Origin: Candidatus Kaiserbacteria bacterium
GTDB lineage: Bacteria; Patescibacteriota; Minisyncoccia; Phycocordibacterales; SBAW01
NCBI GenBank assembly: GCA_009691465.1
Contig: SICK01000002.1
Coordinates: 9,951-73,950 of the forward strand
DNA: 64,000 bases
Reading direction: 5' to 3'
This document shows positions 28,587 through 43,658 of this stretch, piece by piece; positions within the stretch are counted from its first letter, which is position 1; every line of letters begins with the position of its first letter. A program made the translations under genes and the position numbers. The notes below the pieces were generated by a model. The model was given only the letters and a program-made list of their open reading frames with translations, ran no database searches and was not told the DNA's origin.

Positions 28587-28588
28587 AA

Positions 28589-29014: not shown

Positions 29015-29017
29015 GGG

Positions 29018-29091
29018 GGTGGACGATGGGGCTCGAACCCACGACCGCCGGTACCACAAACCGGAGCTCTACCAGCTGAGCTACGTCCACC
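29018..29091 (-). tRNA. tRNA-His (anticodon GTG) with encoded G-1
   Basis: Cloverleaf parsed by hand: G-1 pairs with C73, anticodon loop TTGTGGT, T-loop TTCGAGC. Confidence 0.85.
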
Positions 29092-29117
29092 GTGCGTTTT
29101 TTATACCACACATTGCT

Positions 29118-29603
29118 TTAAACGTGTATCTTTTTACGTTCTTCGGGATAGTGGTGAATCGTATGGTGACAGTTATGACACAACCAAACTAAGTTTTTCA
29201 GCGTATTGTTCTTTCGATTCTGATCAATGTGATGGACCGCCAACACTCTCTTGTCCTCGATGTTGCAGCGCTTACAGATGGGTGGCACTTTGTTGCGCAA
29301 AAGCACACTCCGATATGCGTATAAGCCATTCTTGTAATTGGGATGTTCAGTGCCATGAAAATGAGAGTTTCTCCATTTTGTTTGGCAGGATTTCGAACAA
29401 AAAAATTTTCCGCTCTTTGAACGTTTTATCTGGGTTGGCTTTTTGTATGTTTCTGCCTGACAAAAATCACAATACTTTAACTCTCTAGTCCGGGCATCTG
29501 CATAATGACAAGGCTTAGAGCAGTAATTACCTTGACCACGTGCGACATAAAACGGCTTTGTCTGAAACCCCTTGCCGCATTTTTTACATATTCTAGCTAG
29601 CAC
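29118..29603 (-). CDS. HNH homing-type endonuclease with zinc ribbon
   Basis: HNH core (VHHIDQNRKNNTLKNLVWLCHNCHHTIH) plus CxxC pairs; lower GC than flanks; 26 bp upstream of tRNA-His on same strand. Confidence 0.8.
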   Translation of the reverse strand: MLARICKKCGKGFQTKPFYVARGQGNYCSKPCHYADARTRELKYCDFCQAETYKKPTQIKRSKSGKFFCSKSCQTKWRNSHFHGTEHPNYKNGLYAYRSVLLRNKVPPICKRCNIEDKRVLAVHHIDQNRKNNTLKNLVWLCHNCHHTIHHYPEERKKIHV

Positions 29604-29673
29604 CTATACATGATGGGTCAAATCTAAGCATGAGTAAATACACAAATCAGTGGATATTCAGAAACTTGTGTAT

Positions 29674-30645
29674 TTACCGTATGGCTCGCTGCGAGGAGAC
29701 ATAAGCGAGCGATACAAACACCAATCCGATGAGCCCGGTGATTGCCTCCGGCACATGCACTACAATGCCCACCAACATCGAGAGTCCAAGTCCCAAAATA
29801 GCCCAGTGTGCACCGTGTTCTAGGTAGCGTAGCGTATCCAGGGTTTTTTTGCGGACCAAGTAGACAGTACATGCGCGGACAAAGTAAGTGCCGATGCCAA
29901 GACCCACAAAGATAATGGGAATAGCCGACGTAAGGGCGAAGGCGCCGACCACACCATCGAGCGAGAAGGCCGAGTCGAGAATATTGAGATATATAAACAA
30001 CACCGCGCCCCCGCCCACCACCGAGCCTGCTTTGATGTCGAGAGTTGAGGTGATGCCTTGCATCACCACGAAGGTCAAAAGGCCGATTGAGCCCGCGGCA
30101 AGCACTTGCGCCTGACTATCCGCAAAATACGAGAGCCCCAGCAGTACCGCCAATGCAATAGCAAGCTCTATGGCCTCTACCCTGCCCCAGCGCACGAGGT
30201 GGCGCTCTATCCACGCTATCCAGTGCACGCGCTTGCCGACATCGAAAAAATATTTGAGCGCAACCATAAGAAGGAAGATACCGCCGAAGGCGTTGATAGC
30301 GTGCGAGGCGCCGGCGAGGAGCGCCGCGTAAGCATCGGGGTTTTCAAACGCGAGCCGCGCGGCCGCCACGGGCGATATCCACGCGGCGAGGCCGACGATG
30401 ATGGCCGGCAAAATAAGCCGCGTGCCAAAGACGGCTATAAAAATCCCCCAGGTCAAAAAGCGCCGCTGCCAACGCTCGCTCATTTGCCCCAAGACCTTGG
30501 CGTTGACGACCGCGTTGTCGAAGGAGAGGGTGACTTCCAAAATAGAAAGTAGCGCCGCGAGCAGGAATGCCCCTACGCCACCCCAGTAGTACACCGCCCC
30601 GAGTGCAAGCAAAGAAACCAACACCGGCCCCACAAAAATCCGCAT
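29674..30645 (-). CDS. TerC/DUF475-family integral membrane protein
   Basis: Multi-TM with LSFDNAVVNA motif typical of DUF475/TerC; start trimmed to MRIFVGPV. Confidence 0.6.
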   Translation of the reverse strand: MRIFVGPVLVSLLALGAVYYWGGVGAFLLAALLSILEVTLSFDNAVVNAKVLGQMSERWQRRFLTWGIFIAVFGTRLILPAIIVGLAAWISPVAAARLAFENPDAYAALLAGASHAINAFGGIFLLMVALKYFFDVGKRVHWIAWIERHLVRWGRVEAIELAIALAVLLGLSYFADSQAQVLAAGSIGLLTFVVMQGITSTLDIKAGSVVGGGAVLFIYLNILDSAFSLDGVVGAFALTSAIPIIFVGLGIGTYFVRACTVYLVRKKTLDTLRYLEHGAHWAILGLGLSMLVGIVVHVPEAITGLIGLVFVSLAYVSSQRAIR

Positions 30646-30703
30646 GGCGTTATTGTAACAGAAATGAAAAAGGCTCCCCTTACGATTGGATGAGGGCTTG
30701 CGG

Positions 30704-31819
30704 TTAGCCTGTTTCGTACCGCAGGTACATGCCTGCAACGAACGCAAGCAGTGCCGAGAGGAGAAGCGTCAGAAGTGTCTCAGGGGCACCCCCGCCCGCT
30801 CCTGTGTTCGGAACGTTTGGAACGTCGATTGATACTCCCAATACTGCTCCTGTAACCTCCGGTGTTGGTGAGATGGAGGCGGGAGTTATAGATACAGGAA
30901 CGATTACGGCCGCGCCTCCTCCACCACTGCCGGTTGCGACGGGAGGTCCGTTGCCGCCGCCTCCCGGAGAAGGCGGCGCGACTGGAGCCGGCGTGCTAGT
31001 GGACGAAGAAGTAGCAACCGTTCCCGTAAGAGTGCCAACGGATGAGGTGGCGACCGTCCCTGTAAGCGAGCCCGAAACACTGGAGGCTGCACACGTTGCT
31101 TTGGTGATGTGCGTATTATTTAACGTAACGGCGCCGTTTCTTGCCAGAAGCCTCCCTACAACCGTTGAGCCCCCGTTATCGGTAATGGAGGAAAGGGCTA
31201 GTATACTCCCCTTAAAATCGGAACCCGTTCCGAGTGTCGCAGAACTACCAACCTGCCAAAAAACACGGCACGCCTGCGCGCCGTTTATCAGGGTCACATG
31301 GCTCGCCGATGCCGTTATGAGCGTAGAGGCCGCCTTGAAGATAAAGACTGCGTCGGGGTCGCCCTGTGCGTCGAGCGTGACTGTGCCGGTGATTCCAAAG
31401 GTACCGTCAGCCGAGTCATACACACCGGCAAGTTTGACGGTCCCGCCGAGCTCCGTGGACACTGTGGAGACCGGAGTTTGCCCGGCAGCGTTGTTGTAGG
31501 CCGTGGTGAGGTCGTTTTGTGCTGTAGTCAATAAGCCTGGGTTATTTCCTGCGACACCCGCGGGGCCGGTGGCATCTACTGCGTATATCGTGCCCATGAC
31601 TTCTCCTGTCGTTAATCCGGCATAACTACTACCGGCTGATGGGCTCAAACCCACATCACCATTGATCACGCTTGGGCCGGTATTCGTAACTGCCGACCCG
31701 GCCAGCACGACAAAACCATCGGCCGTGCCGAGGTTTACTGTAGTCGCAGCCATAGCCAACGGGGCCATGCCCAAAATAAAGGCAGCAGCTACTATAGCTA
31801 CTGATGAGGAAATTTTCAT
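30704..31819 (-). CDS. secreted DUF3494 (ice-binding-like) protein with C-terminal sorting-signal-like tail
   Basis: Signal peptide; TADGFVVLAGSAVTNTG...INGDVGLSP matches IBP/DUF3494 family; ends VPNTG-G-rich-APET + 18-aa hydrophobic helix + RYETG. Confidence 0.6.
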   Translation of the reverse strand: MKISSSVAIVAAAFILGMAPLAMAATTVNLGTADGFVVLAGSAVTNTGPSVINGDVGLSPSAGSSYAGLTTGEVMGTIYAVDATGPAGVAGNNPGLLTTAQNDLTTAYNNAAGQTPVSTVSTELGGTVKLAGVYDSADGTFGITGTVTLDAQGDPDAVFIFKAASTLITASASHVTLINGAQACRVFWQVGSSATLGTGSDFKGSILALSSITDNGGSTVVGRLLARNGAVTLNNTHITKATCAASSVSGSLTGTVATSSVGTLTGTVATSSSTSTPAPVAPPSPGGGGNGPPVATGSGGGGAAVIVPVSITPASISPTPEVTGAVLGVSIDVPNVPNTGAGGGAPETLLTLLLSALLAFVAGMYLRYETG

Positions 31820-31981
31820 AACTCGAACCTAATAGTGTAAAGCGGCGATAATGAAGTCACGGTGTGCTCCTCATGAGTAGGAGGCGGCCCCGATGAATTA
31901 AAATGAAGTTACGATGTGCCGAGCATCGGACGAAGTGAGAACCTCTCAATATGTTAACTCTTGAGCGATCGTACTCGGTTG

Positions 31982-32449
31982 CTATATTTCTTTAATGATT
32001 TTCCACTTCGCCATTCCCAACCCACTTGCATCGTCGCCCACCTGCTTTACATAATATTTTCCACCCTCAAAGAAGACACCGTACCAAGAGAAAGAATCCC
32101 AACTCACACATGCCAATCCTGGTTTTATAACAGTCGGCTCTTTTTCAAACACTGCTCCCGCATCAACCTTCTTTATCCACTCGTCGTTTAAATTTTGCTG
32201 ATTCAGTTCCTTGCAATCATTTCGTACTTGAATGTCCGCAGTTTTCACGCTGCCATTTGGTAAGTTGAGAGTTATTCTTGCGTTGTTGAAATTATCGTCT
32301 ACTTTTGATCCAATATCCCACCTCACGCTTGTGGTTTTCTGTGCAGGCTGTTTTTGCATCATGTAATACACGCCACCGCCAATGACCGCTACTCCGACCA
32401 CGATCATGAGTAATAACCCCAGCGACATGAAACCCCTTTGGTAATTCAT
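31982..32449 (-). CDS. hypothetical membrane-anchored protein (AT-rich gene)
   Basis: N-terminal TM then Asn/Lys-rich domain; markedly lower GC than genome. Confidence 0.45.
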   Translation of the reverse strand: MNYQRGFMSLGLLLMIVVGVAVIGGGVYYMMQKQPAQKTTSVRWDIGSKVDDNFNNARITLNLPNGSVKTADIQVRNDCKELNQQNLNDEWIKKVDAGAVFEKEPTVIKPGLACVSWDSFSWYGVFFEGGKYYVKQVGDDASGLGMAKWKIIKEI

Positions 32450-32644
32450 AGCGGCATAGTACCACCTTTTTTGGTTAGAACCGCCTCTTAGACGCTAGAA
32501 AAACGTTACTGTTAAATGCCTTTTTGGGTTAGGTGGTTCTAATACGTCTCATCCTGGGTTTGCGTAGATCTGCGATGTTAGAACCGCTGAAAATACCGCT
32601 CCCTGCGGCTAGAATCTAGAAAAACACAATTAAATCTTCTTCGG

Positions 32645-32728
32645 TGCCCGGGAGAGGACTCGAACCTCCACGCCCGTAAGGGCTTATCCACCTCAAGGAT
32701 AAATGTCTACCAGTTTCAACACCCGGGC
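32645..32728 (-). tRNA. tRNA-Leu (anticodon GAG), long variable arm
   Basis: Hand-parsed: acceptor GCCCGGG, anticodon loop TTGAGGT, variable arm CCCTTACGGGCG, T-loop GTTCGAGTC. Confidence 0.85.
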
Positions 32729-32733
32729 ATGGG

Positions 32734-33438
32734 TTATAACTGCTCGCCTACTATACTAAGCATTTTTTGTATTTTCAACCGCTTACGCGGCAAGTGCATA
32801 CTGTTCTTTCTGTAGTACATTCTTCGCAACAAAATAAGCGATTCTTTTTTTGCGTACTTGAGCTGATATATCGTGCGCGCTTTCCCCTTCCCAGTAACAT
32901 GGCCTTCTATACCTGCCTGTCTGCGGATCTCATCGCGCAACCAGACAATATGAACTTTGCTGGCTGACCCAAAAACCGTGTAAAACATATAACTAGAGCG
33001 CCAGCGCGGATCCCAATAGGAATAGGTGCATCCGTCCCCATCAAGATGCCCGCGCAAAAAGTCAAAAAAGTATGTATCCGGAATCTTTAGGCTTCCAATG
33101 ACCTTGCTTTTATTTGGCATGAGCCCAATCTCTAAAAGAAAGTTGTAGAGGGTGACATTGCCGAATTGAATTCTTGGGCACAGATTTCCGTCATAGCCAG
33201 AACGGGTATAACCTATGGCGGATTTTAAATTAAAAGCTTTTTTAGCATTCTCCAGCTGCACTATATCTTTTGAGACCAGCGTGATATGCCGACCATCACC
33301 GGAAAGGCAGCCATCGGTGACTAAAAGGCCAATCCCATACGCAAGCTCCGCTGACCACACAGGCGGAGGTTTTGGTTTTGGTCCCCTCTTCCCCATCTTA
33401 ATTAGTATACCAAACCTCAAGTATATAGCGTCTACCAA
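32734..33438 (-). CDS. LAGLIDADG homing endonuclease (two-motif)
   Basis: LAYGIGLLVTDGC and FLRGHLDGDG motifs; AT-rich; stop codon 5 nt from tRNA-Leu 5' end; true start may be MGKRGPK (33396). Confidence 0.75.
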   Translation of the reverse strand: MVDAIYLRFGILIKMGKRGPKPKPPPVWSAELAYGIGLLVTDGCLSGDGRHITLVSKDIVQLENAKKAFNLKSAIGYTRSGYDGNLCPRIQFGNVTLYNFLLEIGLMPNKSKVIGSLKIPDTYFFDFLRGHLDGDGCTYSYWDPRWRSSYMFYTVFGSASKVHIVWLRDEIRRQAGIEGHVTGKGKARTIYQLKYAKKESLILLRRMYYRKNSMHLPRKRLKIQKMLSIVGEQL

Positions 33439-33490
33439 TTATCCACAAAAAGAAAACCGGAGTTTTGCTCCGGCCTCTTTTCTTTTTAAA

Positions 33491-33970
33491 TTACTCCGTT
33501 GCGGCAACCTCGGCAACAACCGGCTCTACCGGAGCAGGAGCTTGGTTGGTGTCGGTCTTGCGACCACGCTGGTCGACCGAAAGGCTGCGGCGCATGGCGC
33601 GTTTGACCTCACTGGCGGCCTTGCGGCGGATAAAGTAGAGCTTGGCGCGGCGGGTGCGGGTGCGGCGCAAGACCTCGACTTCGTCTATCATCGGCGAGTA
33701 CAGGGGAAAGATCTTTTCTACCCCGACACCCGAGGACACCTTGCGGACCGTAAACATCGCGCCCGGCTCGGTGCCGTGTTTGACCGCGAGTATGGTGCCT
33801 TCAAACGCCTGTTTGCGGATGTTTTTGGTGGTGAGCTCTTTCTTGTTGGCTTGTTTCGCCTTTTTAAGCTCGACGATGTTCTGCCAGACGCGCACGACAT
33901 CGCCCGCACGCAGGCCCAAGGCTGCGCGCGCTTGCATGTTGACCGGAGAGGTGATGACGGACGATTTCAT
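33491..33970 (-). CDS. rplS: 50S ribosomal protein L19 (with C-terminal extension)
   Basis: L19 core pattern (GDVVRVWQNIVE...FEGTILAVKH...FTVRKVSSGVGVEKIFPLYSP). Confidence 0.85.
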   Translation of the reverse strand: MKSSVITSPVNMQARAALGLRAGDVVRVWQNIVELKKAKQANKKELTTKNIRKQAFEGTILAVKHGTEPGAMFTVRKVSSGVGVEKIFPLYSPMIDEVEVLRRTRTRRAKLYFIRRKAASEVKRAMRRSLSVDQRGRKTDTNQAPAPVEPVVAEVAATE

Positions 33971-33993
33971 GACTTACGGAATGTAGCACAGGG

Positions 33994-34683
33994 CTACGCT
34001 TTTCGCAATTCTGCCTCGGCCGCGACGAAGTCCGGCGGCAGGGGGGCCAGAAAGGTCATCTCACGCCCGGAGGGGTGCGCAATAGTAATAGAGTACGCGT
34101 GGAGCGCGAGGCGCTTGAATCCGAACATAGGAGGCCGTTGGGGTGCGTAAAGTTGGTCGCACACAATCGGGTGCTGTATCGCGGCGCAGTGCACGCGGAT
34201 CTGGTGGGTGCGCCCGGTCTTGGGGAACGCTTCTATATATGCGGCACCCTGCCCGCTTGCACTCTGCTCGGTCGAAGTATTGCTCAAGCGCTTCCAGGTG
34301 GTCGAGGCCGCGCGCTGTACTCCGTGGGGGCGCGTGGCCGAGCGGGGCCCGCGCCCGCCGCGCGCAGAGCCGATGGGCCGCTCTATCACTCCCCTTTCTT
34401 CTTTGAGCGCGCCGTACACGAACGCGCGGTATATCTTTTTTATTTCCCGGTTCTGGAATTGCTCTTTTAAAAACGCGTGCGCCTCTGCTGTTTTGGCCAC
34501 TACCAACACACCCGAGGTCTCGCGGTCGATGCGGTGTACAAAATGATGTTCCTGATATTTTTTATCCAACCAATGCGAAAGGGCCGGGTAGTCGTGCTTG
34601 CCGTCCGGGTAGACGATCATCCCGGAGGGTTTGTTGACGACCACCAGCATATCGTCTTCAAATAAAATGGTGGGCTCTTCCAT
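33994..34683 (-). CDS. RluA-family pseudouridine synthase
   Basis: Catalytic HRIDRETSGVLV motif. Confidence 0.8.
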   Translation of the reverse strand: MEEPTILFEDDMLVVVNKPSGMIVYPDGKHDYPALSHWLDKKYQEHHFVHRIDRETSGVLVVAKTAEAHAFLKEQFQNREIKKIYRAFVYGALKEERGVIERPIGSARGGRGPRSATRPHGVQRAASTTWKRLSNTSTEQSASGQGAAYIEAFPKTGRTHQIRVHCAAIQHPIVCDQLYAPQRPPMFGFKRLALHAYSITIAHPSGREMTFLAPLPPDFVAAEAELRKA

Positions 34684-34684
34684 G

Positions 34685-34757
34685 TGGGCGCTGCAGGACT
34701 CGAACCTGCGACCATCCCGGTGTAAACGGGGTGCTCTACCAACTGAGCTAAGCGCCC
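34685..34757 (-). tRNA. tRNA-Val (anticodon TAC)
   Basis: Hand-parsed cloverleaf; anticodon loop TTTACAC. Confidence 0.85.
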
Positions 34758-34758
34758 G

Positions 34759-34830
34759 TGCCCTCGGTAGGAATCGAACCTACATTCGCGGCTTAGAAGT
34801 CCGCTGTTCTATCCATTGAACTACAAGGGC
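34759..34830 (-). tRNA. tRNA-Arg (anticodon TCT)
   Basis: Hand-parsed cloverleaf; anticodon loop CTTCTAA; 1 nt from tRNA-Val. Confidence 0.8.
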
Positions 34831-34841
34831 GAATGCCCTAT

Positions 34842-35456
34842 TCAAAACCAGGGCAGCAGGTGCCAGTGCACCATAGCATATATGATACCAAGTATCACCA
34901 GCGCCACGCCGAACCACGCCAGGTATTGCTTGATGATATCGAGCGCGTGCCGTCCGTAGCGGATAGACAGGTAGACCACCAACCCCATGCGCAAGGCCCG
35001 GCCGAGCGTGTACCCGGCGATAAACGGCACAAACGGCGCGCCCAAAAACCCGCCCGCATAAATAAACACCTTGTCGGGGATCGGGGTAAACGACGCGATT
35101 GCCATGCCGACAAACGCCCCGTTTTGGATGAATACTTGTGCTCGTGCAAAAGCATCCTGCAGTCCGTACAGCGCCAACAGCGGCTCTCCAAATTGTTGAA
35201 AAAGAAATCCACCGACATAGTAGCCGACCGCCGCCCCTAGGACCGAAAACACTATCGCCACCGGCAGGTACTGGCGCCAGCGTGCGGGCTGGGCCAGGGC
35301 AAAAGCGACCAAGTATATCTCGGGTGCTAGGGGGAAGAAGAGTGCATCGGCAAACGCCAGGCCGCCCAGCCACGCGAGCGCGTGCGGCTTGTGCGTGTGC
35401 TCGACAAACCACGCCCACGACCGCATATGCCACTCGTGTATCAAGTGCCAGCTCAT
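34842..35456 (-). CDS. DedA/YqaA-family membrane protein
   Basis: Multi-TM with conserved G-rich motif (FTPIPDKVFIYAGG); start trimmed to MSWHLIHEW. Confidence 0.6.
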   Translation of the reverse strand: MSWHLIHEWHMRSWAWFVEHTHKPHALAWLGGLAFADALFFPLAPEIYLVAFALAQPARWRQYLPVAIVFSVLGAAVGYYVGGFLFQQFGEPLLALYGLQDAFARAQVFIQNGAFVGMAIASFTPIPDKVFIYAGGFLGAPFVPFIAGYTLGRALRMGLVVYLSIRYGRHALDIIKQYLAWFGVALVILGIIYAMVHWHLLPWF

Positions 35457-35457
35457 A

Positions 35458-35784
35458 TTATTTGACGCGCTCGCCGGGAGCGCCCGTGGTTTCAAACAAA
35501 GCAAAAGGAGTATCCCCGCCGCCCACGGCAAGCAGCATCGCCTGGCTCTCGAGCCCCATCATGGTGCGGGGTGCAAGATTGGTGACAAAGGGGTAGCGCT
35601 TCCCCACCAATGCTTGCGGGTCAGGAAAATATTTTGCGATGCCGGAGAGCACTTGGCGCTCCTCGGTTCCAAAATTAACACGCAGCTTAAGCAGCTTGTC
35701 GCTGCCCTCTATCGGTTCGGCTGACAACACTTCACCGATCTGTATCTCGACTTTTTTAAAATCATCTAACGATATTGGTTCCAT
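35458..35784 (-). CDS. tRNA-binding (EMAP/Myf-like, CsaA-type) domain protein
   Basis: Pattern FKKVEIQIGEVLSAEPIEGSDKLLKLRVNFG...GIAKYF typical of tRNA-binding OB domain. Confidence 0.65.
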   Translation of the reverse strand: MEPISLDDFKKVEIQIGEVLSAEPIEGSDKLLKLRVNFGTEERQVLSGIAKYFPDPQALVGKRYPFVTNLAPRTMMGLESQAMLLAVGGGDTPFALFETTGAPGERVK

Positions 35785-35785
35785 A

Positions 35786-36199
35786 TTATTTTTTTATAGT
35801 ATCAAGAAAACTTTGTAATATCAGCGCCGCCGCCGATGCGTCGAGGTCGGTGTGGATGGGATTCTGTTTGCGGGAGCCCTCAGTGGGGGTAAACTGCCGC
35901 GCGGCAGCCGCACTGCTAAACAGCTCGTTTTGGTAGTGCACCGGCAGTTGTGTCAGTTCGGCTATGTCTTTTTTAAACTGCTCTATGTCCTCCATCACGG
36001 GGTTGCGCTCTCCGGCAAAGTTGCGCGACTCGCCCAACACTATCTCCCCTACCCCCTGCGCTTTTACTATATCGACGACCTCCTGCAAGGCGTGCGGTCC
36101 GGCTTTGACGACCCCGTGCGGAAACGCGACCGAGCCCGTCTCGTCCGAAACGGCAACGCCGATATGTTTTGTCCCGTAATCTATCCCCAAGTACCGCAT
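35786..36199 (-). CDS. ruvX: Holliday-junction resolvase-like / pre-16S rRNA nuclease YqgF (RuvX)
   Basis: MRYLGIDYGTKHIGVAVSD N-terminus; start trimmed from the long 249-aa ORF. Confidence 0.8.
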   Translation of the reverse strand: MRYLGIDYGTKHIGVAVSDETGSVAFPHGVVKAGPHALQEVVDIVKAQGVGEIVLGESRNFAGERNPVMEDIEQFKKDIAELTQLPVHYQNELFSSAAAARQFTPTEGSRKQNPIHTDLDASAAALILQSFLDTIKK

Positions 36200-36221
36200 T
36201 GGTGTAGCATAACAAATATAC

Positions 36222-36306
36222 GGAGGGGTGGCAGAGTGGTCTAACGCACCGCACTTGAAATGCGGCGTGCCGCAAGGCACCGTGAGTTCGAATCTCACCC
36301 CCTCCG
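36222..36306 (+). tRNA. tRNA-Ser (anticodon TGA), long variable arm
   Basis: Hand-parsed: acceptor GGAGGGG/CCCCTCC, anticodon loop CTTGAAA, variable arm CGTGCCGCAAGGCACC. Confidence 0.85.
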
Positions 36307-36331
36307 CAGATTGTAGCGGTATAATACCTCC

Positions 36332-36796: not shown

Positions 36797-36829
36797 ATAA
36801 ACAGCAAAGCAGTTTGCTTTTTCAACCTA

Positions 36830-36923
36830 GTGCAGGATACTTGAATTAGTGCGAACCAGCTTCCGTGCCGCCGAAGGCGGCGCAAACCCCCCGCAGAAAA
36901 TGCAGGCGGCGAAGCCGCACCGC
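36830..36923. repeat. IR-L: left copy of a 94-bp PERFECT inverted repeat
   Basis: gtgcaggatacttgaattagtgcgaaccagcttccgtgccgccgaaggcggcgcaaaccccccgcagaaaatgcaggcggcgaagccgcaccgc; its exact reverse complement is at 37878-37971; contains GAA-loop hairpins. Confidence 0.9.
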
Positions 36924-36992
36924 TGACAATATCAAATTTTTCTTTGGCGGACTAGGTTAGAGCGCGCAAAGCGCGCACAACTGCTCTTTGAT

Positions 36993-37769
36993 TTATTGGG
37001 TTATCGTCAATGTCCCCGATGCTGGAGACGCATATGGTACTGCGGCAACTACATGATATGTACCGGACGTAAGGCCATTCGGAAAAATATCTGTATGCAA
37101 CAGGGACGATTTAGAGATTTTGACGGACCAACGACCATTCACAACAGACACATGCTCATCGTTGAAGAGAACAGTTGGTTTTGGCGGAGCATAATCAATG
37201 CTGATCAAAATCTCTCTAACGCCTGAAGCTGTACCGGTAATGGTGGGTTCAGCGGAAGAACTGGTGAGTGAACCAGCATCAATGCTTATGGATGGCTGGG
37301 CAACTATTGTAAGCGTCCCTGAAGCGAGAACTTTGGTTCCACTAGCGTCTGATACGCTCACTCCGTAAGTCCCAGCAGAAAGTGCAGAAAAGCCAGGGAA
37401 GTCGGCGTAATCAACGGGATATGACCAACGGCCATTTACCACTTTTACCAAAGTACTGGGATGGCGATTATCTGGGTTAATGGCAATTATCTTTCCCGTC
37501 TGATCAGTCATCGTCAGAGCTACACTAACTTGACCTGTATTCGCGGCCGTCCCAGTAATTATGGGCTGTACGGTTGAAGAATTGAGAGAAGCCGAGTCAA
37601 TTGTTGCGGATGGCGCACTAGATGGCTGTGTCGCTTGTTGCTGAATTTCTGTGGTTGAAGAAGTCGCAGGCACACTTGGTTTCTGCGACATAGCCCACCA
37701 CGCGACTGCCCCGCCAATAATGACGACAAGTCCAACTATGAGCCACACATTTGCAAATCCTCGATTCAT
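36993..37769 (-). CDS. secreted tandem beta-sandwich (Ig-like) repeat protein, enclosed by the 94-bp IRs
   Basis: N-terminal TM/signal; two internally repeated approximately 90-aa Thr/Ser-rich modules; lower GC. Confidence 0.55.
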   Translation of the reverse strand: MNRGFANVWLIVGLVVIIGGAVAWWAMSQKPSVPATSSTTEIQQQATQPSSAPSATIDSASLNSSTVQPIITGTAANTGQVSVALTMTDQTGKIIAINPDNRHPSTLVKVVNGRWSYPVDYADFPGFSALSAGTYGVSVSDASGTKVLASGTLTIVAQPSISIDAGSLTSSSAEPTITGTASGVREILISIDYAPPKPTVLFNDEHVSVVNGRWSVKISKSSLLHTDIFPNGLTSGTYHVVAAVPYASPASGTLTITQ

Positions 37770-37877
37770 AAAATTAGTAATGAGTTAATAAATAAATTGT
37801 ATGCCTAAAATTTTCTTTTTCCCGAATTCAAATATGGTTCGTGCCGATGTTTTTCCGGGCTCCTTGGCGGTTTTCGA

Positions 37878-37971
37878 GCGGTGCGGCTTCGCCGCCTGCA
37901 TTTTCTGCGGGGGGTTTGCGCCGCCTTCGGCGGCACGGAAGCTGGTTCGCACTAATTCAAGTATCCTGCAC
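37878..37971. repeat. IR-R: right copy of the 94-bp perfect inverted repeat
   Basis: Exact reverse complement of 36830-36923 (verified base by base); identity stops at both ends. Confidence 0.9.
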
Positions 37972-38050
37972 CAAGTAGGAAATTGCAAGGAAGAGCTCGC
38001 CGCCGCGCACTGCGTTTTGGGGCTGAATTCAAATTGGCGATTTCGCATTC
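37972..38050 (-). pseudogene. diverged inverted copy of the serine-recombinase 3' end plus tRNA-Arg acceptor end (attachment-site-like remnant)
   Basis: Reverse complement aligns with 39470-39570 (gcgaaatcgccaatttgaattc..., gcggcggcgagctc..ccttgcaatttcctayttggtgc) with a 19-nt gap; encodes RNRQFEFSPKTQCAAASSSLQFPTWC vs recombinase C-terminus RNRQFEFEAKPQYARAAAPCAAASSTLQFPIWC; diverges exactly after ttggtgc. Confidence 0.6.
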
Positions 38051-38100
38051 GGGAAAAAGAAAACTTTTTGGCATTCCATTAAAAATAACTACTACGAAAT

Positions 38101-39579
38101 ATGAAATATGTACTTTACGCTAGAAAGTCCACCGAGGAAGATGACCGACAAGTCCTAAGTATTCAAGCTCAGCTTGCTGAGCTTTCTTCGTATTCCGCCA
38201 AAGAAAAATTTGATATTGTCGCCTCGTTTTACGAGGCGAAAACCGCAAAAGAGCCCGGGCGAACTGTGTTCGCAGAAATGCTGTCATTCATCGAAGCTGG
38301 GAAAGCAGACGGAATCATATCTTGGCACCCCGATAGATTGGCAAGAAATTCAGTTGATGGTGGCAAGATAATCCACATGGTAGATCGCGGCTTGATTCGT
38401 TCCCTCAAATTTCCGACCCACTGGTTTGAACCAACGCCGCAAGGACTATTCATGCTGAACATTGCTTTCGGACAAAGTAAGTACTTCTCCGACAATTTGC
38501 GAGAGAATGTGAAGCGCGGACTACGACAAAAGATACGGAACGGCGTATGGCCCGGCTGGGCTCCGGTGGGATATCTGAACAATCCTAAGACAAGAGGAAT
38601 CGACGTGGACAATACCAACGCTCCCAAAGTGAAAAAACTATTCGAACTGTATTCCACCGGAGCCTACACGCTAAAATCTCTCGCAAATTGGTGCACGGAA
38701 CAACACCTCAAAACGAACGCTGGCAATTCAATATCACTAAGCAATGTTCAGCATATTCTCTCAAATCCGTTCTACACCGGACTGATGAGATACAAGTCGG
38801 AAATCTTTGAGGGAACCCACGAGCCGGTTCTGACAAAGAAACTTTTTGACCAAGTACAGGAAGTGATGTCGAAACGCGGCAAGGTACACGAAACCAAGAG
38901 GCACAGCTTCGCGTTTCTCGGCCTAATGAAGTGCGCCTCGTGCGGTGCAAGCATCACCGCGCAATATGCGAAAGGAAATGGTGGCATCTACACCTACTAT
39001 CGCTACACAAAAAAACGAGGCGTGTGTACCGAGAAATATCTGCGTGAAGATGTGCTTGAAACACAAATCAAATCGTTCCTACAAAAAGTTTCTTTATCGA
39101 GCCAAGACACGCAGAAAGTTTTGGCGGCGTTGGAACAGGACGAAGCGCAGGAGAAAGAGGAAGCAAGGGCAGAAGCAGAAAACCTAAAAGCGGAACTCGC
39201 AACGCTGGACAACCAATTAGAAAAGTTGCTCAACCTCTATCTTGCTGACGCGCTATCCACAGCAGAATACGCCGCTAAAAAGAATACCCTCATATCTCAA
39301 AAAGTGCGAATCGAGGAGAAAATCACCGACATCGAACAAAGGGGCGTGTCTTGGCTCGAACCGGCTCGTGAATTCGTTTTATCCTTGAATCAAGCCGCGA
39401 ATCTGCTTTCCCACAATGACTTGAGCGGAATGACAGCATTTCTGAAAAACATCGGCGCGAACCATTCTCTGCGAAATCGCCAATTTGAATTCGAGGCCAA
39501 ACCGCAGTACGCGCGAGCCGCCGCGCCCTGCGCGGCGGCGAGCTCCACCTTGCAATTTCCTATTTGGTGCTCCCGGTAG
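38101..39579 (+). CDS. large serine recombinase (resolvase/invertase-type catalytic domain + recombinase domain + zinc ribbon + coiled coil)
   Basis: YARKSTEEDDRQ catalytic-Ser motif, CASCGA zinc ribbon, Glu/Lys-rich coiled coil; AT-rich relative to genome; last 15 nt overlap tRNA-Arg 3' end. Confidence 0.85.
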   Translation: MKYVLYARKSTEEDDRQVLSIQAQLAELSSYSAKEKFDIVASFYEAKTAKEPGRTVFAEMLSFIEAGKADGIISWHPDRLARNSVDGGKIIHMVDRGLIRSLKFPTHWFEPTPQGLFMLNIAFGQSKYFSDNLRENVKRGLRQKIRNGVWPGWAPVGYLNNPKTRGIDVDNTNAPKVKKLFELYSTGAYTLKSLANWCTEQHLKTNAGNSISLSNVQHILSNPFYTGLMRYKSEIFEGTHEPVLTKKLFDQVQEVMSKRGKVHETKRHSFAFLGLMKCASCGASITAQYAKGNGGIYTYYRYTKKRGVCTEKYLREDVLETQIKSFLQKVSLSSQDTQKVLAALEQDEAQEKEEARAEAENLKAELATLDNQLEKLLNLYLADALSTAEYAAKKNTLISQKVRIEEKITDIEQRGVSWLEPAREFVLSLNQAANLLSHNDLSGMTAFLKNIGANHSLRNRQFEFEAKPQYARAAAPCAAASSTLQFPIWCSR

Positions 39580-39639
39580 GAATCGAACCTACATCATATC
39601 CTCCGCAAGGATACGTCCTATCCATTGAACGACGGGAGC
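39565..39639 (-). tRNA. tRNA-Arg (anticodon GCG) with encoded CCA
   Basis: Hand-parsed: GCTCCCG acceptor, anticodon loop TTGCGGA, T-loop TTCGATT, 3' ACCA encoded; convergently overlapped by recombinase stop. Confidence 0.8.
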
Positions 39640-39682
39640 CTTAAACCCTGAAAGCTTACAGGGTTTAGCTTGTTTGGGCAAA

Positions 39683-42600
39683 CTAGATTTCGAGGAAACT
39701 CGGCAGAATGCTCACCGATTTTTGTAGAGGGCTCCCGCTGTCGCAGGTCAGAGTAAAGGTGGTGCGTTTGCTGATGGTCTGCGACAGGGTGCCGTTGAGT
39801 GAGCTGGAGAGTACTCCTGCAGCGGTCGAAGAGAGCGTACAGGCGGTGCCGCTTACCCCGCCGCTCCATACCACGGTGATGGTGCCGCGGCGGCGTACCC
39901 GGCTGGGGGTGACCGACAGCGAGAGTTCGGCAGAGGGTGCGTTGATGCAGGCAGAGCCACCGGTGGGGCAGGTCTGGCCCGCAGAGCAGTTGGTCAGGGT
40001 GGCGCCCGAGCAGGAGTCCACCGTCTTGGTGTTGTCGCCCGAGCAGGTGGCATTGTGCAGACAACCGGCCGTCAGTTTGACCCCACAGGCGCTGCTGCTG
40101 TATGAGAGCGAGGTGACCCCGTGCTGGGTAGAAGCGGCGTAGCTCGAGCTCAATCCCATGCTCGTGCGCGTGATATCCATGGTCTGCCCGATTGACACCA
40201 GACCCGCATGTACGGCGGCCTTGCCCACCGCAGAGTCCCAAGTGTAGCTGCCGTTGGCGGTGCCGTTGCCTCCCCAGATGCTTCCAGATGCAGTACCAAT
40301 CACCGTGATGGGTGTGTAGGCAGAGGGGTGGTCGGTAGCGCAGGTGTCGGCGGCGTCGTTGTCGGTGATGGTAAGCGTTGCCGCCGCGTTGCCGGAAATG
40401 GTGTACCCGTTAGGTGAGTTGAGCGTCAGGACGGCAGTCTCGTTCCCCTCGGCTGTCGTGTCGTCGACCGGTGTGAGCGTTACGATGATCGTGCTCTGCC
40501 CGGGCATAAAGGTAACGCGTGCGCTGGACGGATAGTCGATATAGCCGCCGGCGAGCGTGTAGTCGGTGTTGTTCGTCGCACTGCCGGTGATATCAATATA
40601 CACACCAAGAGGAGAGCTATTGGAACCGCCGCGTGTGACGGTATAGGTGCCGGTGGTCGAGGGTTCTCCAGGGCTGCCCGCGGCAGAGATAGAGATGGTG
40701 TTAGCAGGCGGAGGCGTCCCACCGCCGCTGACGTTTACATTGGCGTTGCAGCTGCTGGAGCCCGAGCTGTTGGTGAGCGTGATAGTAAAGGGTACGGCAA
40801 CGGTACTGCCGGTGCTGTTGGTGATGTTGCCGGAGGAGTAGCTGGTGAGGGTTGCGGGGGTTACTGTTTGGGAGTCGACGCAGTTAACTCCGCTGACTTG
40901 GTTCTGATGGCAGACCAGCGTGGCGCCGGTGGCGGCACCACCCACGTTACTCCAACTAAAGGTGGTATTGTTGCCGCTGCTAATCGAGGTAGGGCTCGGG
41001 GAGAGGCTGGAGTTGCCGCTGACCATGCAGTTGGGGGCGGACGAATTGTTTTGATTATTTTGGGTGCAGGTATTACTGCCCGAGTTGTAGGTGTATCCGC
41101 TCTGTGCATTACAGCTGGGGTAGGTACCGGGGCAATTGGCGGGGCACACCGCCGCTCCTTGTGTAGTAAACGCGCCGGTTGCCTGGTTGCTGTAGGTCCA
41201 CGTACCTAATGCGTTGGTGTTGGCCGCATGCACCCACCAGGTATAGGCGGTGCCGGGGTTGAGGTTACTAAAGGTCATGCTGGTCCCCGTGGTGTTGTCG
41301 TTGATGCAGGTGGCGTTGTCGCTGTAGAGCACCCAGTTTGCACCGATGGCCGGGCAGCCGGCGGTGGGCTTGGGGGTGAGGCGTATGGGGTAGAGGTTGG
41401 TGTTGTAGGCGACAGAGCTCCACGTGCCCGAGCAGGTGGTGGAGTTGCTGCACGAACTTGCGGTGATGTTGGGTGGGGGGAGCGGGGTAAAGTTGTGTGA
41501 TGAAGGAGAGCTCCATCCGCCCGCGTTGTACGCATGCACCCACCAGGTGTAGGCGGTACCCGTGCTCAAATTGTTGAAGGTCATGTTGGTGCCGGAGTTG
41601 GTATCGTGGACGCAGGTGGCGTTGTCGCTGAAGGTCGACCACCCCGAGCCGATAGCTGAACAGCCGCCGGACGGTTTGGGAGTAAGGCGCACGGGGTAGA
41701 GTGTTGCTCCGCTCACCGAGCCCCACACCCCGGTGCAGGTGCCGCCGATGCAGTAGCTGGCGGTGACGTTTGGAGCAGCAGGAATGGGGACTGAAATGGT
41801 CACCGGGATAGACATAGTTGCAGAGCCTACCGGGCCACTGCAAGTAAGGCTGTAGGTAGTGTTGCTGGTGGGGTACACGGTGGTGGAGTTAAGGAGCCCC
41901 GAGCCGCCAAAGTTGGAGCTGGCGGAGTCAAACTGATTTTTAGTCCCGCCGTAGTTGTCGTAGCCGCCACAGGGGCCAAAAGGCGTCCAGTACCAGGAAC
42001 AATACACCGCCCTGAATTCTTCGTAATCCTGGCAGGCCCACTCAAGTACTAGCGCCCCGCCGCTTGCCACAGTGGGGTTAGAGCCGGTAGAGCCGGGCGA
42101 ATAGGAGTGGCTTTCCGCCGCTTGACGGGCGCTGTAGCAGTTAGCTCCCGACCCGAGGGCGACGTATGTATACCCCTCGGCTGGTGCGTAGGTGTTGGGG
42201 CAGTAGTAGCCTCCGCCCTCGCCGCCGTCATACTCGGCCGGACCAACATAGGGCCCTAGTTCTTCGCCCGCGGGGTTGATGGTCTGTAGCGTATAGGCCG
42301 TTTTCCCCGCCGTAGAGCCGGCAGGATGGGCGCTAAAGACGGCCATGATGGCAGCACTATTATTGCCAGTGGCCCAGTTGTTACAGCCGGGCGCGCTAGT
42401 AAACGGTGTTTGATCAAGTTCCCCCTTACCCCAAGGGCCTGTTTTGCAGCCTTGCGGCCGCGGAGAGCCGTTAGAGCCGCTCCCCACTTGATTCCACGGC
42501 GAATTGACATTATAGCCGGGGACGCCCTGTTGGGTGCCCAGCCAGGTAGCGGCCGTTTGTGATTGGTCGATAACACTCAAAGACCCGAGGCTCTTTTCCA

Positions 42601-42700
42601 GCCCGCCTTGGCTGATAAAGATTGCTGCAAAGAGGAGGAGCGCCACGCCGCCGCATCGTGCGGCCAAAAAGCGCAGCTCTTCAGGAGTAAGCGGTCGCAT
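39683..42700 (-). CDS. giant membrane-anchored Cys/Gly/Ser/Thr/Asn-rich surface protein (Fn3-like repeats, Calx-beta-like and LCCL-like domains)
   Basis: N-terminal anchor (LLLFAAIFI); two approximately 100-aa repeats each ending TAYTWWVHA; Calx-beta-like segment (...TLTITDND); LCCL-like segment (...AAVHAGL...); start trimmed to MRPLTPEEL because upstream codon is TTG. Confidence 0.7.
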   Translation of the reverse strand: MRPLTPEELRFLAARCGGVALLLFAAIFISQGGLEKSLGSLSVIDQSQTAATWLGTQQGVPGYNVNSPWNQVGSGSNGSPRPQGCKTGPWGKGELDQTPFTSAPGCNNWATGNNSAAIMAVFSAHPAGSTAGKTAYTLQTINPAGEELGPYVGPAEYDGGEGGGYYCPNTYAPAEGYTYVALGSGANCYSARQAAESHSYSPGSTGSNPTVASGGALVLEWACQDYEEFRAVYCSWYWTPFGPCGGYDNYGGTKNQFDSASSNFGGSGLLNSTTVYPTSNTTYSLTCSGPVGSATMSIPVTISVPIPAAPNVTASYCIGGTCTGVWGSVSGATLYPVRLTPKPSGGCSAIGSGWSTFSDNATCVHDTNSGTNMTFNNLSTGTAYTWWVHAYNAGGWSSPSSHNFTPLPPPNITASSCSNSTTCSGTWSSVAYNTNLYPIRLTPKPTAGCPAIGANWVLYSDNATCINDNTTGTSMTFSNLNPGTAYTWWVHAANTNALGTWTYSNQATGAFTTQGAAVCPANCPGTYPSCNAQSGYTYNSGSNTCTQNNQNNSSAPNCMVSGNSSLSPSPTSISSGNNTTFSWSNVGGAATGATLVCHQNQVSGVNCVDSQTVTPATLTSYSSGNITNSTGSTVAVPFTITLTNSSGSSSCNANVNVSGGGTPPPANTISISAAGSPGEPSTTGTYTVTRGGSNSSPLGVYIDITGSATNNTDYTLAGGYIDYPSSARVTFMPGQSTIIVTLTPVDDTTAEGNETAVLTLNSPNGYTISGNAAATLTITDNDAADTCATDHPSAYTPITVIGTASGSIWGGNGTANGSYTWDSAVGKAAVHAGLVSIGQTMDITRTSMGLSSSYAASTQHGVTSLSYSSSACGVKLTAGCLHNATCSGDNTKTVDSCSGATLTNCSAGQTCPTGGSACINAPSAELSLSVTPSRVRRRGTITVVWSGGVSGTACTLSSTAAGVLSSSLNGTLSQTISKRTTFTLTCDSGSPLQKSVSILPSFLEI

Positions 42701-42751
42701 GCGTCCATTGTACCTCCCAATACAGAAGGCAAAGTCAATTCTCCACAACTA

Positions 42752-42780
42752 TCCTCTCGGTAGGAATCGAGCCTGCATCG
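42752..42780 (-). pseudogene. tRNA 3'-end fragment (T-arm + acceptor 3' strand only)
   Basis: ctcggtaggaatcgagcctgcat resembles the T-arm/acceptor 3' half of the Arg tRNAs (ggtaggaatcgaacctacat) but no 5' half or anticodon arm can be folded. Confidence 0.35.
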
Positions 42781-42866
42781 CATGGATGGTGCGTCGCGGT
42801 CAGGACTTATCCACGTATTGAATATAGGTCTATATCCACTGTAGATAATTCCTATATAATGAACTT

Positions 42867-43562
42867 ATGGCTGGCGTGCGCTACCCCGAAAAGACGAAGC
42901 AAAAAGCGCTGGAGCTGGTACAGTTAGGTAAAACTTACGCCCAAATTCAAACAAATCTCGCAATCCCTAAAAGCACCCTCTCTGTATGGGTCAACCAACT
43001 TGGAAAGAGGCCCGACCGAACCCGGCAGCTAGCTCACCTACGTGTCGCAAGAATAGCCTCTGCAGCAGCCCTCCGGCGTAGCAAAGACTCTCGTATCGCC
43101 CAAGCCACCCTTGTTGCTACTCAACTTGCCGGCGTAACTCCAATCGACAGAAAGGAAGTCGGGAAAGCCTTACTCGCAATGCTATATTGGGCGGAGGGCG
43201 GCAAACAAGATGGAAATATGAAGTTCACAAATACGGACCCGAACCTGGTGGTATTTTTTATTACTTTGCTGCGCAAACAGTACGCCGTGGACGAGAAACG
43301 TCTCCATGTCGCTTTACAATTACACTCCTACCACCGATCGAAAGATGAGCTTAATTTTTGGTCAAAAATACTACATATACCCGTATCACAGTTTTGGAAA
43401 ATCTATAGAAAACCGCGCGGTGGGCGTAGAACATACCGGAGGAATTCCCATGGAATTTGTAACTTGCACTATGCCTCAAGTTCTATCCAGCGCGAACTCA
43501 TAGCTCTCGGTCGCGAGCTCGCATTAAAAATCAGACCCGAAAATGCAGCCGCACTAAATTAG
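42867..43562 (+). CDS. LAGLIDADG-family homing endonuclease with N-terminal HTH
   Basis: LAMLYWAEGGK motif (LAGLIDADG_3-like single motif), N-terminal HTH (TYAQIQTNLAIPKSTLSVW); AT-rich; stop 18 nt before tRNA-Arg(CCG). Confidence 0.65.
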   Translation: MAGVRYPEKTKQKALELVQLGKTYAQIQTNLAIPKSTLSVWVNQLGKRPDRTRQLAHLRVARIASAAALRRSKDSRIAQATLVATQLAGVTPIDRKEVGKALLAMLYWAEGGKQDGNMKFTNTDPNLVVFFITLLRKQYAVDEKRLHVALQLHSYHRSKDELNFWSKILHIPVSQFWKIYRKPRGGRRTYRRNSHGICNLHYASSSIQRELIALGRELALKIRPENAAALN

Positions 43563-43580
43563 TGCTATCTTTCTTAAATT

Positions 43581-43652
43581 GCCCTCGTAGCTCAACGGAT
43601 AGAGCGCAGGCCTCCGAAGCCTGAAATCGAGGTTCGATTCCTCGCGGGGGCA
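43581..43652 (+). tRNA. tRNA-Arg (anticodon CCG)
   Basis: Hand-parsed: acceptor GCCCTCG, anticodon loop CTCCGAA, T-loop TTCGATT. Confidence 0.85.
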
Positions 43653-43658
43653 CAAATA

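Follow-up and report, generated by a model that had tools for sequence, protein, structure and literature searches.

Nuclease genes directly 5′ of tRNA genes in Patescibacteria: probable homing-type cassettes, each specialised on one tRNA

Why should three genes resembling nucleases each lie immediately upstream of a tRNA gene, on the strand of that tRNA, within one piece of a bacterial chromosome? The question arises from a contig of Candidatus Kaiserbacteria, of which a 64,000-nucleotide (nt) stretch (the window) was analysed; loci of relatives are numbered from L001 upward. An earlier reading of the letters alone (the original prediction) proposed three open reading frames (ORFs) as free-standing homing endonuclease genes. 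These ORFs are indeed present at 29118-29603 (minus strand), 32734-33438 (minus) and 42867-43562 (plus), each on the strand of the tRNA that follows it, and the predicted gaps of 26 nt to tRNA-His, 5 nt to tRNA-Leu(GAG) and 18 nt to tRNA-Arg(CCG) are correct. Our preferred answer, to which we assign a probability of about two-thirds, is that they are three independent selfish cassettes of the homing type, free-standing and each specialised on one tRNA gene. The idea of mobile, selfish cassettes on specific tRNAs gained support from the finding of empty and occupied alleles, decayed copies and clean boundaries. The window contains eight tRNA genes, on which ARAGORN and Rfam agree. The genes of immediate concern are as follows.

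29014-29091, minus strand: tRNA-His(GTG), 'type A' allele, with D-arm GTAGCTCAGCTGGTAGAGC (ARAGORN, Rfam)
29118-29603, minus strand: ORF1, HNH nuclease of 161 residues with two N-terminal four-cysteine modules
32643-32728, minus strand: tRNA-Leu(GAG), complete, with variant D-loop and anticodon stem (ARAGORN, Rfam)
32734-33396, minus strand: ORF2, two-motif LAGLIDADG nuclease of 220 residues
42867-43562, plus strand: ORF3, with an N-terminal helix-turn-helix (HTH), a long helix and a C-terminal domain containing LLAMLYWAEGGK
43581-43653, plus strand: tRNA-Arg(CCG) (ARAGORN, Rfam)

Pairing with tRNA genes, and occupied and empty alleles

Species-representative genomes were scanned with the ORF2 family, and at least 552 species were found to encode a relative. 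In all 76 loci with enough downstream sequence, tRNA-Leu(GAG) lies 0-46 nt downstream of the gene on the same strand; a paralogue at 46% identity adjoins tRNA-Leu(CAG). Relatives of the HNH gene sit before tRNA-His and, when more distant, before tRNA-Ser(TGA). Those of ORF3 with at least 51% identity are located immediately before tRNA-Arg(CCG), with tRNA-Arg(GCG) on their other side; at 40-50% identity they precede tRNA-Arg(GCG), and distant ones precede tRNA-Ile(TAT) or tRNA-Val(GAC). The pairing of family with tRNA, the orientation and the distance of no more than 46 nt are kept across Paceibacteria; they recur in well over 100 independent loci and are thus not due to chance. Of 80 loci with the LAGLIDADG gene, 75 have rplS, the gene for ribosomal protein L19, as its upstream neighbour. 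Three loci without rplS (L014, L048 and L066) keep the gene-tRNA pair, identifying the tRNA and not rplS as the anchor. The families are large, with about 3,500 homologues detected for ORF2, about 1,100 for ORF1 and about 5,000 clusters at 50% identity for ORF3 (5,029 cluster representatives at E ≤ 1e-3).

The tRNA genes had been proposed as invariant homing anchors. The anchoring is specific; the anchors are not invariant, with a mean pairwise identity among close relatives of 0.75-0.85 (tRNA-Leu(GAG) 0.82-0.83, tRNA-Val(TAC) 0.85, tRNA-Arg(TCT) 0.82 and tRNA-His 0.75). We considered an arms race that had rendered tRNA-Leu(GAG) hypervariable and rejected it, as its variability equals that of tRNA-Val and tRNA-Arg(TCT); only tRNA-His shows lower identity.

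The genes might instead be passive hitch-hikers, spread by transformation and homologous recombination through conserved flanks, with nucleases directed at phage or plasmid DNA or at foreign tRNA genes and not at the empty allele. Such flanks (rplS, tRNAs) are present, nuclease genes are common in defence contexts, and it is not apparent what would make a carrier immune to a nuclease directed at the tRNA gene. That each family or subfamily keeps strictly to a single tRNA identity, across different neighbourhoods, would nevertheless be hard to achieve without sequence-specific targeting, and we regard hitch-hiking as unlikely.

Alleles were sampled from 28 metagenomic contigs of close relatives, fetched by means of the L19 of the window (72-94% identical) and blind to nucleases. 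At tRNA-Leu the sample comprises four intact LAGLIDADG alleles, two decayed ones and about 19 that are empty; at tRNA-His, four are occupied by an HNH gene and 14 are free of it. The synteny comparison suggested at the outset therefore yielded alleles with and without a nuclease gene at both tRNA-Leu and tRNA-His. Among close relatives, each of the three cassettes is found in some and missing from others. Where tRNA-Leu has no cassette, a stretch of about 13 nt separates it from the rplS stop codon, and tRNA-His is often a mere 30 nt or so further on. L092 and L087 are collinear over more than 5 kb at 82-90% DNA identity, and the break between them (758 nt in one, 6 nt in the other) is exactly the cassette. 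The decayed cassette of L105 consists of the terminator and the last 17 codons; that of L098 has a remnant of the tRNA-half copy described below, a GIY-YIG gene and the last 23 LAGLIDADG codons. The genes are discrete single-gene cassettes, tRNA-specific and polymorphic; LAGLIDADG cassettes also occur in decayed form, and the catalytic residues of the LAGLIDADG and HNH proteins are intact. A sharp drop in identity at the cassette edges was tried as proof of replacement and set aside, since mostly only the rplS flank can be compared and it is strongly constrained.

Two further features of this site were noted. The GIY-YIG ORF of L098 (77 residues, Pfam E 3.9e-17; approximately 3190-3560, between rplS and tRNA-Leu) stands in the place of the LAGLIDADG gene, so that a fourth nuclease family uses the same niche. 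tRNA-Leu(GAG) is inverted with respect to rplS in two relatives (L102, 3964-4048; L125, 1212-1296), which suggests local inversions.

Pairwise protein identities of the LAGLIDADG protein and of L19 are uncorrelated (2485 pairs, a few of them affected by a paralogue artefact from L037; Spearman −0.04), the LAGLIDADG identity being about 56% whatever that of L19. Homing genes are expected to show occupied and empty alleles at one site in related genomes, as found here, and gain, decay and loss that are uncoupled from host phylogeny; these too were observed, with the caveat that cassette base composition tracks that of the host. The guanine-plus-cytosine (GC) content is 41.4% for ORF1, 45.6% for ORF2 and 48.7% for ORF3. 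The three had been described as AT-rich islands in a 60% GC genome; their low GC is real, while the window has 55.7% and not 60%. Across loci the cassettes show a constant deficit of 8-9 percentage points relative to the host, in 99-100% of cases, and their GC follows that of the host with a slope of about 0.8 (r 0.73-0.87). Recent import as the cause of the low GC was therefore rejected, the offset being constant and tracking host GC.

These data also bear on the possibility that the genes are domesticated, with an ancient, vertically inherited role tied to the tRNA (regulation of its transcription, or protection or repair of its gene), and are often lost in reduced genomes. The constant position, the strongly conserved proteins with all copies full-length, and the GC that tracks the host would fit such a role. 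It is opposed by the close relatives, most of which lack the genes and have a compact rplS-tRNA-Leu-tRNA-His arrangement instead, by the replacement of the LAGLIDADG gene by a GIY-YIG gene in L098, by the presence of three or four unrelated nuclease families at the same kind of site, and by protein divergence that is uncoupled from the host. Domestication appears improbable to us, and the cassette structure described next bears on it further.

Anatomy of the LAGLIDADG cassette

ORF2 had been placed at 32734-33438. The frame exists, and its start is most likely ATG 33396, on which public annotation and all homologues agree, and not TTG 33438, which falls within the ORF2 promoter region. Its designation as a two-motif LAGLIDADG protein was borne out: the family profile matches 2dch_X, a putative homing endonuclease in the PDB (E 2.6e-6), as well as I-CreI variants, and the motifs read GLLVTDGcLS and FLRGhFDGDG, with the acidic residues D28, D119 and D121 invariant in 24 homologues. 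Pfam LAGLIDADG_3 is precomputed on many of the homologues; the ORF2 query alone reaches only E 0.044. The nearest annotated relatives, at about 30% identity, are genes of Staphylococcus phages and carry annotations as homing endonucleases, either intron-encoded or 'DOD'. From rplS towards the tRNA, the elements of the cassette are as follows.

33491-33970, minus strand: rplS (ribosomal protein L19), the usual upstream neighbour
33447-33477, minus strand: rho-independent terminator, GAGGCCGGAG-CAAAA-CTCCGGTTTT plus a T-run, directly after rplS
33415-33446, minus strand: copy of the tRNA-Leu(GAG) 5′ half, gtggataattggtagacgctatatacttgagg
33404-33412, minus strand: TGgTATACT, extended −10 box of ORF2, 7 nt before the ATG
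32750-32778, minus strand: predicted tRNA-Leu promoter in the ORF2 tail, TTGAAA (32778-32773), 17 nt, TATAGT (32755-32750); promoter scan 10/12

The block inserted in the ~13-nt spacer between rplS and tRNA-Leu consists of a terminator, a tRNA-half copy with a promoter, and the ORF. In occupied alleles the order after rplS is terminator, tRNA-half copy, TATAAT box and an ORF with a promoter in its tail; the terminator is missing from empty alleles. The tRNA-half copy spans the D-arm and the 5′ strand and loop of the anticodon stem, stopping just past the GAG anticodon. Its consensus, AATTGGTAgACGCTATtacCTTGAGg, is found in 71 of 84 loci; most copies have no acceptor strand, and L070 retains the entire tRNA-Leu 5′ half. 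Local alignment to a panel of tRNA-Leu alleles gave a median z of 9.2, always in the sense orientation. The signal against the tRNA immediately downstream is weak (median z 1.3), since the copy and the resident tRNAs are by now divergent, and that comparison was superseded by the allele-panel test. A tRNA-Leu allele matching the upstream half copy was found in none of five occupied loci, compared with 10 of 19 empty ones (p 0.053). The copy points to the tRNA-Leu gene as the site of action, a second argument against passive hitch-hiking. It is probably the trace of an insertion that once took place in the anticodon loop, and by analogy with I-TevI (see below) may now serve as promoter and as a binding site or operator for the ORF2 enzyme.

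Since the copy stops in the anticodon loop, the classical intron position, and LAGLIDADG genes are typical intron passengers, we asked whether the nuclease genes lie in spliced tRNA introns of the group I or archaeal type. Group I introns located within Patescibacteria tRNA genes are described in a preprint, as reported in a paper that cites it (PMC12641178). This explanation was rejected: each tRNA downstream is complete and has both of its acceptor strands, and no group I or group II model of Rfam matches within 28000-44500, even at E ≤ 1. The lack of an acceptor strand in most upstream copies is a further objection. Present-day introns are thus highly improbable, and an intron origin of the LAGLIDADG cassette is possible as history.

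A TATAAT-like box lies 6-10 nt before the start codon in most of the 84 loci, abutting the tRNA-half element, and is often extended (TGnTATAAT). This spacing implies a leaderless or near-leaderless ORF2 mRNA. The second promoter falls within the last 17 codons of ORF2 (RKRLKIEKMLSIVGEQL) and ends 21 nt before the tRNA. Codon usage in this tail was compared across 57 loci. The Leu codon of the −35 box is TTG in 50, whereas the other Leu codons of the tail are mixed; the Lys codon of that box is AAA in 51, and the Ile codon of the −10 box is ATA in 41. The variable codon preceding this Ile ends in T in about 81%, whichever amino acid it encodes. To judge from these codons, the nucleotide pattern is not explicable by the protein sequence alone. 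It had been supposed that the tRNAs are transcribed from within the nuclease genes, and for tRNA-Leu the conserved TTGAAA-17-TATAGT in the last codons supports this. The promoter-bearing tail is also what both decayed cassettes (L098 and L105) keep. In empty alleles there is no room for a promoter between rplS and tRNA-Leu, which is presumably co-transcribed with rplS; in occupied alleles, the terminator is predicted to cut this link and tRNA-Leu to be driven by the sigma-70 promoter in the nuclease gene. Candidate extended −10 boxes were also identified in the His and Arg gaps, where conserved TGnTATAAA and TGnTAtCtT, respectively, lie 8-9 nt before the tRNA.

A domesticated gene could use both the tRNA promoter that it bears and the tRNA-like sequence over its own promoter for regulation. 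The decayed copies nevertheless retain only the promoter tail, and the closest characterised relatives of ORF2 are the phage genes mentioned above; both observations speak against domestication.

We note that the low-GC stretch around ORF2 extends downstream (window 31850-32450) over an ORF of 155 residues (31982-32449, minus strand), for which no Pfam family and, in 80 related loci, no homologue was found. This region between tRNA-Leu and tRNA-His is probably other DNA that was recently acquired or evolves fast.

The HNH unit and the ORF3 family

The assignment of ORF1 to the HNH nucleases was confirmed by its match to phrog_1271 (E 1.7e-19) and by the HH..N..N..CHNCH..H residues and zinc cysteines. 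Residues H123, H124, D126, N132, N136, C141, H142, N143, C144, H145 and H149 are invariant in 23 homologues, as are the zinc cysteines C109 and C112 and both N-terminal four-cysteine modules. The Pfam families HNH and HNH_3 score below their curated cut-offs. Judged by its conserved residues, ORF1 is an intact HNH (beta-beta-alpha-Me) nuclease. Two flanking regions may be relevant to its expression and to that of tRNA-His.

29100-29108, minus strand: TGgTATAAA, candidate extended −10 box for tRNA-His, 8 nt 5′ of the tRNA and within the 26-nt gap
29633-29657, minus strand: ORF1 upstream region, with ATATCCAC (DnaA-box-like, 29657-29650) and TTTACT (−35-like, 29638-29633)

In other HNH loci a TAAAAT or TATAAT box comes 16-17 nt after TTTACT and 7-9 nt ahead of the start codon; in the window the −10 element of ORF1 is weak (CATCAT). 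As to the candidate −10 box of tRNA-His, the block AATGTGTGGTATAAAA is common to the closest HNH loci, L093 and L103.

The HNH unit comprises the ORF and its own tRNA-His allele, which replaces the resident one. This is seen most clearly in L093 and L106, which are collinear at 91-92.5% identity: 670 nt in L093 (HNH gene plus type-A tRNA-His) have as their counterpart 101 nt in L106 (spacer plus 'type C' tRNA-His). Close relatives without the HNH gene mostly carry the different, type C, allele of tRNA-His. A tRNA-His other than type C was present in four of five loci with the HNH gene and in three of 14 without it (p 0.038). A tRNA-like copy upstream of the HNH genes was sought in the same manner as for tRNA-Leu, by alignment to panels of tRNA alleles in sense and antisense, and rejected (median z 1.0 as against 9.2 for LAGLIDADG).

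Three observations on HNH-type genes are recorded here. Tandem HNH paralogues, 41-50% identical to ORF1, precede a single tRNA-His in L023 (12035-12993) and L059 (4226-5205). In one HNH subfamily (L081, L105 and L008) the reading frame enters the tRNA-His gene by 15 nt, so that the last codons of the nuclease are encoded by the 5′ end of the tRNA. Finally, an ORF of 104 residues with the pattern CxxC...CxxCH ends 11 nt into tRNA-Arg(TCT) in three loci (L047, at about 9002, and two others); its sole Pfam match is a weak one to HNH (E 0.004), and it may represent another tRNA-specific nuclease family.

ORF3 presents a different picture. Its HTH is of the transposase or Sleeping-Beauty type, and the conserved C-terminal domain contains LLAMLYWAEGxK, resembling a LAGLIDADG helix. 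Pfam searches on family members (29 and 40 sequences) returned HTH families alone, save one LAGLIDADG_3 match at E 0.1; profile searches of the PDB with the family likewise matched only the HTH, and hhalign of the ORF3 and ORF2 families gave a probability of 0.2. An AlphaFold2 (AF2) model (pLDDT 87) folds the C-terminal domain as α-β-β-α-β-α-β-β-α. With Foldseek, no LAGLIDADG protein was among the top 50 PDB matches of this model. Comparison with viral models gave weak matches (E 0.05-0.3, probability about 0.96, root-mean-square deviation 3.4-4 over some 110 residues); the proteins matched bear the names of LAGLIDADG or homing endonucleases, or are large terminases. The original assignment as a single-motif LAGLIDADG protein is thus not established, the resemblance of the motif and the weak Foldseek matches being what points to it. 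For our purposes ORF3 is a presumed nuclease whose fold is unclassified, and its C-terminal domain may be a very divergent or a new nuclease fold. Phage relatives of ORF3 were looked for and none was found. The regions on either side of ORF3 are as follows.

42807-42860, plus strand: ORF3 upstream region, with TTATCCAC (42807-42814), TATCCAC (42833-42839) and TATAAT (42855-42860), the last 6 nt before the ATG
43563-43571, plus strand: TGcTATCTT, candidate extended −10 box for tRNA-Arg(CCG), 9 nt before the tRNA

The upstream motifs are conserved among ORF3 homologues, and TGnTAtCtT occurs at the same distance from the tRNA in L109-L119. A tRNA-like copy upstream of ORF3, including TTATCCAC read as an antisense D-arm, was rejected (median z −0.15 as against 9.2 for LAGLIDADG). 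A DnaA-box-like motif, T[TA]ATCCAC(A), is found upstream of promoters in all three nuclease families (in the window at 42807-42814, 42833-42839 and 29650-29657; for LAGLIDADG, for example, in L010, L037, L038 and L059). It occurs in 25 of 137 upstream regions compared with 30 of 5000 random windows; its distance to the −10 box varies, and it is not general to regions upstream of tRNA genes.

Mechanism, precedents and neighbouring elements

Selfish homing-type cassettes would spread as follows. When an empty or sensitive allele meets an occupied copy, perhaps through uptake of DNA or because the cell has several copies of its chromosome, the nuclease would cut the former in or beside the tRNA gene. 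Repair from the occupied copy would then copy the cassette in, as in the intron-less homing of the T4 Seg and Mob enzymes, and differences between alleles would make the carrier immune. At tRNA-Leu the insertion would also rewire expression, the terminator insulating the tRNA from rplS and the promoter in the ORF2 tail driving it. With that promoter inside the nuclease gene, simple loss of the gene would silence an essential tRNA.

Several points weigh against this mechanism. Cleavage is the step that we infer, and its target site is undefined. About 12 of the 76 occupied loci keep the common CTACC/GGTAG anticodon stem, and their escape from self-cutting is unexplained. Homing also presupposes that two alleles come together in the same cell, which for these bacteria is an assumption. 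ORF3 is no more than a presumed nuclease, its fold being unclassified. As tRNA-Leu(GAG) is no more variable than the tRNAs compared with it, there is no sign of an arms race. The tracking of host GC makes it less likely that long-range transfer is frequent; it is consistent with long residence, or with transfer limited to similar hosts. That the LAGLIDADG identity stays at about 56% might be due in part to rapid saturation and not to transfer. The two allele associations (p 0.053 and p 0.038) are weak, and come from samples that are not phylogenetically independent.

We also entertain a more far-reaching proposal, tentatively and at rather less than even odds, that these are 'promoter-capturing' parasites of tRNA genes, a large undescribed class in Patescibacteria. 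Several unrelated families would home onto individual tRNA genes, cut them off from their native operon by a terminator and, by means of a promoter in their own coding sequence, become the sole source of tRNA transcription. The host would thereby be addicted, and a decaying cassette would have to keep its promoter tail. In the LAGLIDADG case the tRNA-half copy would serve as an operator, through which the enzyme senses its own target sequence and represses itself; the HNH gene would bring along a replacement tRNA allele that is resistant to its own nuclease.

Precedents exist for parts of these proposals. In intron-less homing by T4 SegE, SegF, SegG and MobE (summarised in PMC2330249 and PMC2988022), cleavage takes place near the insertion point, the flanks are co-converted and the carrier is protected by target differences. 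As here, the nuclease genes lie between conserved genes and are present or absent in close relatives. They are not known to be associated with tRNA promoters, to carry a copy of the 5′ half of a target gene or to alter the expression of a neighbour, in contrast to what is proposed here. Edgell, Derbyshire and Belfort reportedly described in 2004 the autorepression of I-TevI at an operator resembling its homing site. Similarly, a sequence like the presumed target lies over the ORF2 promoter, the tRNA-Leu half copy being positioned at about −12 to −45 of the predicted promoter.

The original prediction knew of no description of such a niche beside tRNA genes; a precedent is T4 SegB, a GIY-YIG homing endonuclease whose free-standing gene lies in a phage tRNA cluster (PMC2330249, PMC13096335) and which cuts inside tRNA genes, at a 27-bp site including the T-psi-C motif (PMC2330249). 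It brings about preferential inheritance of the tRNA region and its co-conversion, tRNA alleles included (PMC2330249). The likeness lies in a free-standing nuclease gene lodged among tRNA genes and, for co-conversion, in the HNH unit that carries its own tRNA-His allele. SegB is, however, a phage enzyme acting in co-infection, a single family with relaxed specificity for many tRNAs. The present cassettes are found in Patescibacteria chromosomes, belong to at least three unrelated families with one tRNA identity each, and lie directly 5′ of the tRNA on the same strand, where they are predicted to supply its promoter.

LAGLIDADG enzymes such as I-ShaI are known from insertions in rRNA genes of the candidate phyla radiation (CPR), where their patchy presence at the same site in distant hosts was read as homing (PMC11270868). 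These share the host phylum and the enzyme superfamily with ORF2. The rRNA-insertion enzymes are mostly single-domain and are encoded inside self-splicing or intervening sequences within the rRNA genes, whereas ORF2 is a two-motif protein, free-standing, outside the RNA gene and equipped with its own terminator and promoters. Our literature search brought up no account, for cellular genomes, of free-standing nuclease genes on the 5′ side of a tRNA gene, nor any of such a gene with a tRNA promoter inside it, nor of the tRNA-half copy.

The families are very large, and at every locus examined close members sit on the same tRNA genes. If the cassettes are as we propose, tRNA genes would be a major habitat for selfish nucleases across a bacterial phylum. 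The LAGLIDADG cassette appears to have become entrenched by swapping the expression signals of an essential tRNA for ones in its own reading frame. The proposal would explain many 'hypothetical proteins' beside tRNAs in candidate-phyla genomes, and would warn that tRNA alleles can move horizontally with a nuclease. It also suggests a source of compact enzymes, whose recognition sites would presumably be long and specific to tRNA genes.

A fourth tRNA gene of the window bears an element of another kind.

38101-39579, plus strand: large serine recombinase, a separate integrative element
39565-39639, minus strand: tRNA-Arg(GCG), its 3′ end overlapped by 15 nt by the recombinase gene on the other strand

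The recombinase contains the domains Resolvase, Recombinase and Zn_ribbon_recom (Pfam E 2.6e-21, 4e-17 and 2.9e-9, all above curated cut-offs) and matches phrog_95, integrase (E 2.3e-79). The overlap with tRNA-Arg(GCG) was foreseen correctly; it involves the opposite strand and the tRNA 3′ end, and the element differs in kind from the nuclease cassettes. In L017, L022, L044, L068, L073, L077 and L095, homologues of the recombinase run convergently up to the 3′ end of tRNA-Leu(GAG) or overlap it by a few nt, as the copy in the window does at tRNA-Arg(GCG). One tRNA gene can thus be flanked by elements of both kinds, a nuclease cassette 5′ and an integrase element 3′.

Integrative elements with tRNA attachment sites, exemplified in the window by 38101-39639, also use tRNAs as landmarks, and the nuclease genes could be conceived as cargo of such integrase-driven islands, the more so as a large serine recombinase adjoins tRNA-Arg(GCG) here and tRNA-Leu(GAG) in other genomes. 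These elements, however, are recombinase-driven, lie at the tRNA 3′ end in the opposite orientation and are unrelated to the nuclease cassettes, of whose presence they are independent. The cassettes are single-gene units of 0.6-0.8 kb on the 5′ side, with no direct repeats of the attachment (att) type. We therefore give the cargo explanation very little credence and retain independent homing-type cassettes.

Pieces of the 5′ and 3′ ends of the recombinase gene are repeated upstream of it in inverted orientation (36819-38047 relative to 38191-39570), for example in a 106-nt arm of 96% and a 47-nt arm of 89% complementarity. They may represent a partial copy of the gene, rearranged or inverted, or repeats related to att; an assembly problem would also explain them. 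Reverse transcriptase genes were seen near tRNA genes in some relatives. One of 428 residues is situated 83 nt upstream of tRNA-His in L001 (approximately 17700-19000), and an RVT_1 and bAvd pair, typical of diversity-generating retroelements, lies beside rpsT and a tRNA-Arg pair in L122-L124 (approximately 7186-8562).

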